From assembly GCF_055900595.2 (NCBI RefSeq), contig NZ_CM148325.1: 64,000 nt of DNA. One strand, 5' to 3'. Below are positions 37,797 to 41,495 of this stretch, piece by piece. The position numbers were made by a program, and so were the translations under genes. The notes under the pieces were generated by a model. It was not told where the DNA came from. It ran no database searches and was given only the letters and a program-made list of their open reading frames with translations. How positions within the stretch are numbered: position 1 is the stretch's first letter; the number at the start of each line of letters is the position of its first letter.

Positions 37797-39494
37797 ATGG
37801 AACCAAAAACAAAAAAACAGCGTTCGCTTTATATTCCTTACGCTGGCCCTGTACTGCTGGAATTTCCCTTGTTGAATAAAGGCAGCGCCTTCAGCATGGA
37901 AGAACGCCGTAACTTCAACCTGCTGGGGTTACTGCCGGAAGTGGTCGAAACCATCGAAGAACAAGCGGAACGCGCATGGATCCAGTATCAGGGATTCAAA
38001 ACCGAAATCGACAAGCACATCTACCTGCGTAACATCCAGGACACTAACGAAACCCTCTTCTACCGTCTGGTAAACAATCATCTTGATGAGATGATGCCTG
38101 TTATTTATACCCCAACCGTCGGCGCAGCCTGTGAGCGTTTTTCTGAGATCTACCGCCGTTCACGCGGCGTGTTTATCTCTTACCAGAACCGCCACAATAT
38201 GGACGATATTCTGCAAAACGTACCGAACCATAATATTAAAGTGATTGTGGTGACGGACGGCGAACGTATTCTGGGGCTTGGTGACCAGGGCATCGGTGGG
38301 ATGGGTATTCCGATCGGTAAACTGTCGCTCTATACCGCCTGCGGTGGCATAAGCCCGGCGTATACACTGCCGGTGGTGCTGGATGTCGGGACGAACAACC
38401 AGCAGTTGCTTAACGATCCGCTGTATATGGGCTGGCGTAATCCACGTATCACTGACGACGAATACTATGAATTCGTGGATGAATTTATCCAGGCTGTGAA
38501 ACAACGCTGGCCGGACGTGCTGTTGCAGTTTGAAGACTTCGCACAAAAAAATGCGATGCCGTTGCTTAACCGCTATCGCAATGAAATTTGTTCTTTTAAC
38601 GATGATATTCAGGGCACCGCGGCGGTAACAGTCGGCACACTGATCGCAGCCAGCCGTGCGGCGGGCGGTCAGTTAAGCGAGAAAAAAATCGTCTTCCTCG
38701 GCGCAGGTTCAGCAGGATGCGGCATTGCGGAGATGATCATCGCCCAGACCCAGCGTGAAGGATTAAGCGAAGAAGCGGCGCGGCAGAAAGTCTTTATGGT
38801 CGATCGCTTTGGTCTGCTCACCGACAAGATGCCGAATCTGCTGCCTTTTCAGACCAAACTGGTGCAGAAGCGCGAAAATCTCAGTGACTGGGATACTGAC
38901 AGCGATGTGCTGTCATTGCTTGATGTGGTGCGCAATGTCAAACCGGATATTCTGATTGGCGTCTCAGGACAGACCGGGCTGTTTACGGAAGAGATCATCC
39001 GTGAGATGCATAAATACTGTCCGCGTCCGATCGTGATGCCGCTGTCTAACCCGACTTCACGCGTGGAAGCCACACCTCAGGACATTATCGCCTGGACTGA
39101 AGGTAACGCGCTGGTCGCCACCGGCAGTCCGTTTAATCCGGTGGTATGGAAAGATAAAATCTACCCTATCGCGCAATGCAACAACGCTTTTATCTTCCCG
39201 GGCATTGGGCTGGGCGTTATTGCTTCCGGCGCGTCACGTATCACCGATGAGATGCTGATGTCAGCAAGCGAAACACTTGCTCAGTATTCGCCGCTGGTCC
39301 TGAACGGCGAAGGTCTGGTATTACCGGAACTGAAAGATATTCAGAAAGTCTCCCGCGCAATTGCGTTTGCGGTTGGCAAAATGGCGCAGCAGCAAGGTGT
39401 GGCGGTGAAAACGTCTGCCGAAGCTCTGCAACAGGCCATTGATGATAACTTCTGGCAAGCCGAATACCGCGACTACCGCCGTACATCCATCTAA
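37797..39494 (+). CDS. maeA: NAD-dependent malic enzyme
   Basis: ORF 37770-39494; start at ATG 37797 ([23 protein letters not shown]…); Rossmann motif [10 protein letters not shown]. Confidence 0.95.
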
Positions 39495-39501
39495 GCCAGC
39501 G

Positions 39502-39535
39502 CCCGGTAGTGACTGCTACCGGGCAATTTTCCTCT
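39502..39535 (+). terminator. Rho-independent terminator after maeA
   Basis: CCCGGTAG-tgactg-CTACCGGG followed by a T-rich tract. Confidence 0.6.
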
Positions 39536-39628
39536 TCCTTTTTCAGATCTCATCCATACTGGGTAGTGGCGAATAAATCTCATTTGCCTCACCTGCTATG
39601 CAGAACATCATCCGAAAAGGAGGAAACT

Positions 39629-40639
39629 ATGAAGGCTGCAGTTGTTACGAAGGATCATCATGTTGACGTTACGGATAAAACACTGCGCTCACTGAAACAT
39701 GGCGAAGCCCTGCTGAAAATGGAGTGTTGTGGCGTATGTCATACCGATCTTCATGTTAAGAATGGCGATTTTGGTGATAAAACCGGCGTAATTCTGGGAC
39801 ACGAAGGTATTGGTGTGGTGGCAGAAGTTGGCCCTGGTGTAACTTCATTAAAACCAGGCGATCGTGCCAGTGTGGCGTGGTTTTACGAAGGTTGCGGTCA
39901 TTGCGAATACTGTAACAGCGGCAACGAAACGCTGTGCCGTTCAGTAAAAAATGCCGGATACAGCGTTGATGGCGGTATGGCGGAAGAGTGCATCGTGGTC
40001 GCCGATTACGCAGTTAAAGTGCCGGATGGCCTGGACTCCGCGGCGGCTAGCAGCATTACCTGCGCGGGTGTCACCACCTACAAAGCAGTAAAACTGTCAA
40101 AAATTCGTCCAGGACAGTGGATTGCTATCTACGGTCTTGGCGGTCTGGGCAACCTCGCCCTGCAATATGCGAAAAATGTCTTTAATGCCAAAGTGATCGC
40201 CATTGATGTCAATGATGAGCAGTTGAAACTGGCAACCGAAATGGGTGCAGATTTAGCGATTAACTCACGCACCGAAGACGCCGCCAAAATTGTGCAGGAG
40301 AAAACTGGTGGCGCTCACGCTGCGGTGGTAACAGCGGTAGCTAAAGCTGCGTTTAACTCGGCAGTTGATGCTGTCCGTGCTGGCGGTCGTGTTGTGGCAG
40401 TCGGTCTGCCGCCGGAGTCTATGAGCCTGGATATCCCACGGCTGGTGCTGGATGGTATTGAAGTGGTCGGTTCGCTGGTTGGCACGCGCCAGGATCTCAC
40501 CGAAGCCTTCCAGTTTGCCGCCGAAGGCAAAGTGGTGCCGAAAGTCGCCCTGCGTCCGTTAGCGGACATCAACACCATCTTTACTGAGATGGAAGAAGGC
40601 AAAATCCGTGGCCGTATGGTGATTGATTTCCGCCGCTAA
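39629..40639 (+). CDS. adhP: Zinc-dependent alcohol dehydrogenase, propanol-preferring
   Basis: ORF 39509-40639; start at ATG 39629 after AAGGAGG ([17 protein letters not shown]…); GHEGIG zinc motif and GLGGLGNLA Rossmann motif. Confidence 0.95.
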
Positions 40640-40648
40640 GAGGCCTTT

Positions 40649-40684
40649 GCTGCGACTGCCATGTTCGGGTCGCAGCCTGTTTTG
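40649..40684 (+). terminator. Rho-independent terminator after adhP
   Basis: GCTGCGAC-12 nt loop-GTCGCAGC followed by CTGTTTTG. Confidence 0.55.
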
Positions 40685-40824
40685 CGAGACGCTTTCCGCA
40701 ATTTCACTCTTCTTCTTTTCCTCCCCCATCTTTCCCCTCACAATTCGCGAAAACGTAGCGAAATTTGTTGCGCTGCACGGAACAATAGTGATAGTGTTCC
40801 TTTCGAGGGAACAAGGATGAAGAG

Positions 40825-41103
40825 ATGATAATGAATTTCAGACACAAGGGATTGCGTGACTTGTTTCTTCTCGGCAAAACCTCCGGCGTTATACCGACGC
40901 AAATCAAACGATTACGCCACCGACTCGCTGTGATTGATGCAGCAAGCTGTCTTGCTGATCTCGATATGCCCGGTTACCGACTACACCCGTTAAGCGGCGA
41001 TCGTGATGGAATTTGGGCGATATCTGTCTCGGGCAACTGGCGAATCACATTTGAATTCGTCAATGGCGATGCATACATACTGGATTACGAGGACTATCAC
41101 TGA
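40825..41103 (+). CDS. HigB-like toxin (RelE/ParE superfamily), type II toxin-antitoxin
   Basis: 92 aa [43 protein letters not shown]…[21 protein letters not shown]…DYEDYH matches HigB family hallmarks as I recall them; its stop overlaps the next gene's start (ATGA). Confidence 0.75.
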
Positions 41104-41387
41104 TGAAAATGGCCAATCATCCCCGCCCGGGGGACATTATTCAGGAATCACTGGACGAGCTGAACGTCAGCCTGCGCGAGTTTGCCAGAGCAATGGAAAT
41201 TGCGCCCTCAACGGCAAGCCGATTGCTGACCGGAAAAGCCGCGTTGACGCCAGAAATGGCGATTAAACTTTCCGTGGTGATCGGCAGTTCGCCGCAAATG
41301 TGGCTGAATCTACAAAACGCCTGGAGTCTGGCAGAGGCAGAAAAAACGGTAGATGTGTCGCGACTACGCCGTCTGGTTACGCAATAA
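41103..41387 (+). CDS. yddM: HigA-like antitoxin, XRE-family helix-turn-helix regulator
   Basis: 94 aa ORF with helix-turn-helix (…[40 protein letters not shown]…); toxin-first arrangement typical of higBA. Confidence 0.8.
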
Positions 41388-41395
41388 ATAAATAT

Positions 41396-41419
41396 CCTCC
41401 GGCATAGCCGGAGGTTTTT
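41396..41419 (+). terminator. Hairpin with T-run after yddM; terminator or IS200 end structure
   Basis: CCTCCGG-catagc-CCGGAGG followed by TTTTT. Confidence 0.5.
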
Positions 41420-41495
41420 CAAATGCGCCTGTAAGGCTCTGTTACCAGCCGCGCCCTAACAGGCGCATACGATCTGACATTTGCATTCAACTTCG

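Follow-up and report, generated by a model that had tools for sequence, protein, structure and literature searches.

A predicted HigB-HigA toxin-antitoxin operon with an intact toxin gene at the adhP-fdnI site of an Escherichia chromosome

Organization of the locus

The window, as the term is used here, is the whole stretch of 64,000 nucleotides that was analysed, taken from contig NZ_CM148325.1 of RefSeq assembly GCF_055900595.2. Downstream of adhP, which ends at position 40639, the list of open reading frames contains two same-strand frames on the plus strand, both starting with ATG. The first, at 40825–41103 (92 aa), is an intact higB-like toxin gene recognized by Pfam PF05015 and by its match to Proteus vulgaris HigB (4MCT). 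The second, at 41103–41387 (94 aa), is the antitoxin gene yddM (higA), which encodes an XRE-type helix-turn-helix (HTH) protein and is matched by TIGR02607. A Shine-Dalgarno-like AAGGA can be read from the sequence at 40813–40817 (plus strand), 7 nt 5' of the toxin ATG. The junction between the two genes reads ...tatcacTGATGaaa and the higB stop codon TGA (41101–41103) and the yddM start codon ATG (41103–41105) share one base (TGATG, in the context cacTGATGaaa).

The original prediction for this locus, made from the letters and the list of reading frames, had described a toxin-first pair of 92 aa and 94 aa between adhP and IS200. Its positions and sizes agree exactly with the list of reading frames, higB precedes yddM, the toxin motifs that it quoted are present in the 92-aa translation, and the neighbours are those named, with adhP upstream and the IS200 tnpA gene (41496–41954, minus strand) downstream. 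The placement of IS200 immediately downstream was likewise accurate, as the element abuts the yddM stop codon. The ATGA stop/start overlap that it reported has to be corrected to the one-base TGATG overlap, as the sequence contains no four-base ATGA at this point.

The mechanical list of reading frames gives a 376-aa, GTG-start version of adhP at 39509–40639. Its true start is probably an internal ATG at about 39629, since the RefSeq annotation gives 336 aa (1,011 nt) for AdhP in all related genomes.

Identity of the toxin and the antitoxin

The 92-aa protein matches the Pfam HigB-like_toxin profile PF05015 with an E-value of 3.9e-18, residues 4–92 aligning with model positions 2–91 of 91. Among all PDB chains, its best relatives are the entries for HigB of P. 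vulgaris Rts1 (4MCT and others, E 6e-32), and the alignment with 4MCT is free of gaps, residues 1–92 falling on 1–92 with 52 of the 92 positions identical (57%). His54, Asn71, Arg73, Asp90, Tyr91 and His92, which we take from the work of Schureck and Dunham to be the catalytic and substrate residues of P. vulgaris HigB, are identical in this alignment in six cases out of six, and the same six are unchanged in every intact toxin allele examined. The DNA of the gene matches, at 100% identity, that of the RefSeq gene encoding WP_032303016.1, which carries the name 'type II toxin-antitoxin system RelE/ParE family toxin'. The NCBIfam RelE/StbE model, which covers a different subfamily, scores 18 bits on the toxin and stays under its cut-off of 27.9.

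The antitoxin scores 93.7 bits against the NCBIfam equivalog model TIGR02607 (antidote_HigA, cut-off 47.7), with residues 3–81 on model positions 1–80 of 81, and carries a Pfam HTH_3 domain (E 5e-9). Its translation is identical to the RefSeq yddM product WP_000781370.1. Furthermore, it is 100% identical over 94 aa to the 'antitoxin higa' of PDB 2ICP/2ICT (E 1e-56), which is HigA of Escherichia coli CFT073 (PMC6987408). In the PDB alignment, the identity to P. vulgaris HigA is 41%, and Ser23, Thr37, Ser39, Arg40 and Lys45, the DNA contacts of that protein (PMC12266136), are conserved between the two antitoxins.

Given the Pfam E-value of the toxin, the HigA score of the antitoxin and the PDB matches of both, higB and yddM are not chance reading frames. 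The homology search of the 92-aa protein against HigB/RelE-type families, which had been proposed as a check, returned a HigB-like profile and HigB structures and upholds the assignment of the toxin to the HigB/RelE fold. The assignment of an XRE-type HTH antitoxin at the yddM position is upheld by the matches of the 94-aa protein. Among the PADLOC defence models, the toxin is without a match and the antitoxin has weak generic HTH matches only, and a catalogued anti-phage system is thus unsupported by these models.

In K-12, the protein is currently named 'DNA-binding transcriptional regulator YddM'. A Keio ΔyddM mutant exists (PMC12457515), as is expected for a strain without the toxin. Most of the literature under the name yddM concerns an unrelated gene of Bacillus subtilis.

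Upstream region and proposed mechanism

A putative promoter/operator region, recognizable as a direct repeat, is located at 40766–40813 (plus strand) and contains two operator-like palindromes, TGTTGC-N7-GGAACA at 40766–40784 and TGTTCC-N7-GGAACA at 40795–40813, 29 bp apart from start to start. The pattern TGTTSC-N7-GGAACA has two sites in the 64-kb window, both of them here, compared with 0.01 expected, a chance figure that is flattering because the pattern was derived post hoc from the same sequence. It was found in all 14 of the related loci fetched, toxin-less ones included, and in the toxin-less K-12, BL21 and O157 the half-sites of the palindromes are kept and the N7 spacers have diverged. 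The hig promoter of Rts1 (Phig) carries two HigA operators (PMC12266136), and by analogy the palindromes may function as HigA operators at this locus. A sigma-70 consensus scan of 40600–41500 yielded no site at threshold, and the promoter can therefore be placed only by means of the operator-like palindromes.

By homology to Rts1, a single promoter would transcribe higB and then yddM, and the one-base overlap of the reading frames would permit translational coupling. HigB would be a ribosome-dependent endonuclease of the RelE fold, cleaving mRNA at A-rich codons in the ribosomal A site, as its 57% identity to Rts1 HigB suggests, and cleavage would use His54, Asp90, Tyr91 and His92. YddM/HigA, as a stably folded HTH dimer, would inhibit HigB by binding to it and would repress the operon via the two palindromic operators over the promoter. 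Both the toxicity and its neutralisation are thus predicted for this locus from sequence.

IS200 and the downstream region

The IS200 element (41386–42097, minus strand) is adjacent to the toxin-antitoxin module and not part of it, as delimited with NF033573 and by alignment with IS-free genomes. Comparison with the empty site gives a length of 709–712 nt (41386/41389–42097), the left junction being ambiguous by three A. The element lies directly at the yddM stop codon with the TAA preserved, and neither gene is disrupted. Its TnpA is an intact protein of 152 aa, which scores 143.9 bits against NF033573 (transpos_IS200, cut-off 55), and the window holds this one IS200 copy only. A full-length STnc490 RNA (Rfam RF01405) is found at 41964–42087 (minus strand) with 146 bits versus a gathering score of 56; STnc490 is an Hfq-binding sRNA that corresponds to the IS200 5' region. 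An Rfam match to Ysr202 at 41314–41419 was dismissed, as its score of 31 bits is below the gathering score (315).

The first terminator-like structure after yddM is a G+C-rich hairpin followed by a T run at 41396–41414 (plus strand), detected in a terminator scan with eight pairs, seven of them G-C, and located inside the IS200 end. Genomes free of IS200 carry a different hairpin at the same point. The IS200 copy of strain GF60 at this site differs from the copy in the window at many positions (roughly 3–4% by eye), and this divergence, together with the repeated occupancy of the site, suggests an old insertion or a preferred target. Further downstream, at 42098–42150, a spacer of ~180 nt with REP-like sequences, which separates the yddM terminator from fdnI in EC42405, GF60 and Nissle 1917, is missing from the window. 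The junction of the loss lies between two similar hairpins (AAAATGGCGC...GCGCCATTT) and is consistent with a deletion by recombination between them. The yddM-fdnI gap is also short in strain H105.

Distribution and decay of the toxin gene in E. coli

The distribution of the pair was assessed in 5,426 complete E. coli genomes, with both genes counted at a coverage of at least 80%. The antitoxin gene yddM is present in 5,408 of these genomes (99.7%) and toxin DNA in 1,328 (24.5%). In every carrier the toxin is single copy, and it is chromosomal except in one record filed as a plasmid. A 1-nt deletion at nt 98 of the toxin gene occurs in 545 genomes, as counted by an exact 37-mer across the deletion; the matching intact 38-mer occurs in 611 genomes, and by difference about 174 carry other variants in the same stretch. 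At least 41% of the toxin copies are frameshifted. The toxin is thus missing from about 75% of the complete E. coli genomes, and missing or frameshifted in about 86%. In strain H105, the one genome with the deletion that was opened, RefSeq labels the gene 'frameshifted' and the translation ends after 35 codons, and another inspected genome has an in-frame 9-nt deletion in the toxin gene.

In K-12 MG1655, BL21 and O157:H7, the gap between adhP and yddM is only 145 bp and contains no toxin ORF, and the operator-like region and yddM are kept. The K-12-type locus did not clearly arise from the toxin-carrying haplotype by simple, recent deletion: the stretch from adhP to the operators is unalignable between the two, and the 3' remnant upstream of yddM resembles that haplotype only loosely.

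The original prediction had raised the possibility that the toxin is decayed elsewhere, with frameshifted copies in other E. coli to be looked for, and this is borne out by the three strains without a toxin ORF and by the 545 genomes with the 1-nt deletion, H105 among them. Its suggestion that the module is under-annotated did not hold. RefSeq annotates the toxin in every toxin-carrying genome inspected, including Nissle 1917 and LF82, TADB lists the pair as higBA and the structure of the CFT073 antitoxin has been solved. The LF82 and Nissle 1917 toxin genes have 97.8–98.2% DNA identity to that of the window, and the window and Nissle toxins differ in three residues (I27V, S41C and L46I).

Ancestry and selection

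At 90% identity, the toxin clusters with proteins that are labelled E. albertii and E. marmotae, and the species attribution of the corresponding contigs is taken from these cluster labels rather than from the contig records. In the contigs so attributed, the gene order maeA-adhP-higB-yddM-fdnI is the same as in the window. The identity of the flanks to the window is 86–88% for the E. albertii contigs and 90–91% for the E. marmotae contigs, as expected for other species. As the intact pair is syntenic in these contigs, the loss of the toxin in E. coli is probably derived, and the intact pair at the adhP-fdnI site probably predates E. coli. Toxins labelled 'Escherichia fergusonii' were not counted as a third species, because their contigs have E. 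coli-like flanks. In both of them (GCA_024331405.1 and GCA_000968895.2), the maeA/adhP flanks are 96–97% identical to the window, and it looks as if the species label is doubtful or the region has been exchanged. The two contigs share the rare synonymous yddM variant GACGAGCTGAACGTC with the window.

Among ten toxin-carrying loci, the antitoxin gene has 27 polymorphic codons with synonymous changes only versus 2 with amino acid changes, and the toxin gene has 12 versus 10. The YddM protein is identical in the window, GF60, EC42405, Nissle, H105, JA0265 and the toxin-less BL21, although the genes differ by as many as 16 synonymous changes. Judged from these small samples, the antitoxin plainly appears to be the more constrained partner. 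Within E. coli as a whole, the toxin is the dispensable half of the pair, and the antitoxin has been kept almost without amino acid change.

When compared with EC42405 over 38800–43680, the window shows ~96% identity in maeA and adhP, 100% in higB, 98.6% in yddM and 99.2–99.9% in fdnI and fdnH. Such mosaic similarity points to a recombination breakpoint in or close to the toxin-antitoxin locus. For the whole 1.56-kb locus, no member of the complete-genome set matches above 98.0%.

Relation to known systems

The HigB-HigA pair of Rts1 from P. vulgaris (PDB 4MCT/4MCX, 4ZSN, 6CHV and 6W6U) has the same gene order, a toxin of the same size (92 aa), an antitoxin with an N-terminal HTH like that of the 41% identical antitoxin described here, and two palindromic operator sites upstream, to which the two operator-like palindromes correspond in position; the half-site sequence at the present locus is specific to it. 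It differs in being plasmid-borne with an antitoxin of 104 aa, whereas the present pair is chromosomal at the adhP-fdnI site with an antitoxin of 94 aa. In addition, K57 and R69 of Rts1 HigB are both replaced by serine in the toxin described here.

The HigA of CFT073 (2ICP/2ICT) and the TA20 pair of the adherent-invasive E. coli (AIEC) strain NRG857c represent the same locus, with the difference that the allele in the window has IS200 after yddM. Bustamante and Vidal (2020) described the NRG857c pair as TA20 'ParE-2/HigA-2' with genes of 279 nt and 285 nt, common to NRG857c and CFT073, and reported that K-12 and HS encode the antitoxin only (PMC7232551). The TADB entries for LF82 and NRG857c call the pair higBA (tables in PMC11205521), and according to a 2024 review such pairs 'remain to be characterized' (PMC11205521). 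The pair is thus already known: it is annotated in RefSeq and listed in TADB, a crystal structure of the antitoxin is available and the absence of the toxin from K-12 has been published. The original finding is therefore correct but ordinary, because most E. coli, K-12 included, have lost the toxin and kept yddM. In the literature searched, which covered few subscription journals, no experiment that examined this allele for toxicity or cleavage was found, and such work may exist.

The HigB-HigA pair of K-12 (ygjN-ygjM) is alike in its toxin-first order and family name, but lies at a different locus (fadH-rlmG) and is not the homologue of the present pair. The K-12 HigA has a C-terminal HTH, an architecture unlike that of yddM-type HigA (PMC6987408), and NRG857c and CFT073 are reported to have only an orphan higA at the ygjN-ygjM site (PMC7232551). 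GraT-GraA of Pseudomonas putida (PDB 6F8S) and HigBA of P. aeruginosa belong to the same fold family but are much more distant, with E-values of 1.7e-7 for the toxin and 1.8e-11 for the antitoxin. GraT has a disordered regulatory N-terminus, and nothing points to such a feature in the toxin described here.

Interpretation of the locus

Taken together, the locus most probably represents an intact HigB-HigA type II toxin-antitoxin operon that is indigenous to the Escherichia chromosome at the adhP-fdnI site, a reading to which we assign a probability of roughly 0.8. With the same confidence, the pair would act as a standard HigBA module, in which an HTH antitoxin dimer both neutralises a ribosome-dependent mRNase toxin and represses its transcription.

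A further, tentative view of the antitoxin is that YddM has been domesticated, being near-invariant across Escherichia for a host function of its own, with its cognate toxin repeatedly discarded. YddM may then regulate targets other than its own promoter as a transcription factor, or counter incoming HigB-type toxins as an anti-addiction factor, and the cognate toxin may have been lost by clean deletion, as in the K-12, BL21 and O157 genomes examined, or by the 1-nt deletion seen in 545 genomes. If YddM is indeed domesticated, an intact toxin, as in the window, Nissle 1917, LF82 and an APEC O18 strain, would mark lineages in which HigB still pays.

It is also conceivable, though unlikely, that the toxin frame is intact but functionally attenuated and on its way out, with selection acting on YddM alone. 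YddM would then act in host transcriptional regulation or as an anti-addiction antitoxin, and the survival of higB here would only mean that it has not yet been hit. The near-universal presence of yddM compared with 1,328 toxin carriers fits such attenuation, as do the lesions within the toxin gene (the 1-nt deletion in 545 of the 1,328 and the in-frame 9-nt deletion in one) and the identity of YddM in toxin-carrying and toxin-less genomes in spite of their synonymous differences. K-12 YddM has, moreover, been put through ChIP-exo as a candidate transcription factor (PMC6237786). The toxin allele could be attenuated because proportionally many of its polymorphisms change amino acids (10 codons versus 12 synonymous-only). 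However, none of the six catalytic or substrate residues checked varies among the intact alleles examined. Furthermore, higB in the contigs assigned to E. albertii and E. marmotae is 95.7–97.8% identical in DNA sequence to that of the window, whereas their flanks reach only 86–91%, and conservation above the level of the flanks argues for constraint or recent exchange and against free decay.

That the toxin is a ParE-type poison of DNA gyrase is very improbable. The name ParE is attached to the pair in the literature, through the ParE_toxin superfamily and the label 'ParE-2/HigA-2' in PMC7232551 and the treatment of the pair under ParE in PMC11205521, and it recurs in the generic RefSeq name 'RelE/ParE family toxin'. 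The specific Pfam match, however, is HigB-like_toxin, and TADB files the pair as higBA. The toxin's closest relatives of known structure are without exception HigB mRNases, with 57% full-length identity, the HigB catalytic residues are present, and no ParE structure occurs among the PDB matches of the toxin (E up to 1), all six of which are HigB or GraT-type 'killer proteins'.

Toxin-antitoxin modules are often mobile and IS200 abuts the yddM stop codon here, but a recent arrival of the pair as cargo or by-product of IS200 or another mobile element can practically be dismissed, since only 7 toxin-carrying genomes cover at least 80% of the locus query that includes IS200, which means that almost all toxin carriers have the pair here without it, since the synteny is the same in the contigs attributed to E. 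albertii and E. marmotae, and since IS200 also follows yddM in several toxin-less genomes (H158–H165). An origin of the module from IS200 is refuted by this distribution. A plasmid search with the toxin protein gave 542 records, in which the matches at 90–99% come from records of several megabases, chromosomes that had been filed as plasmids. The true plasmid copies are all below 60% identity (best 57.6%), and a recent plasmid origin was rejected on this ground.

Implications

To the existing knowledge of this pair, the present analysis adds a census of complete E. coli genomes and the synteny in the contigs attributed to E. albertii and E. marmotae. This synteny makes the toxin-less yddM of the laboratory strains probably a derived state, and the locus is a natural example of toxin loss with retention of the antitoxin. 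The prediction that follows is that yddM should be deletable in K-12, but not in strains like the present one unless higB is inactivated.
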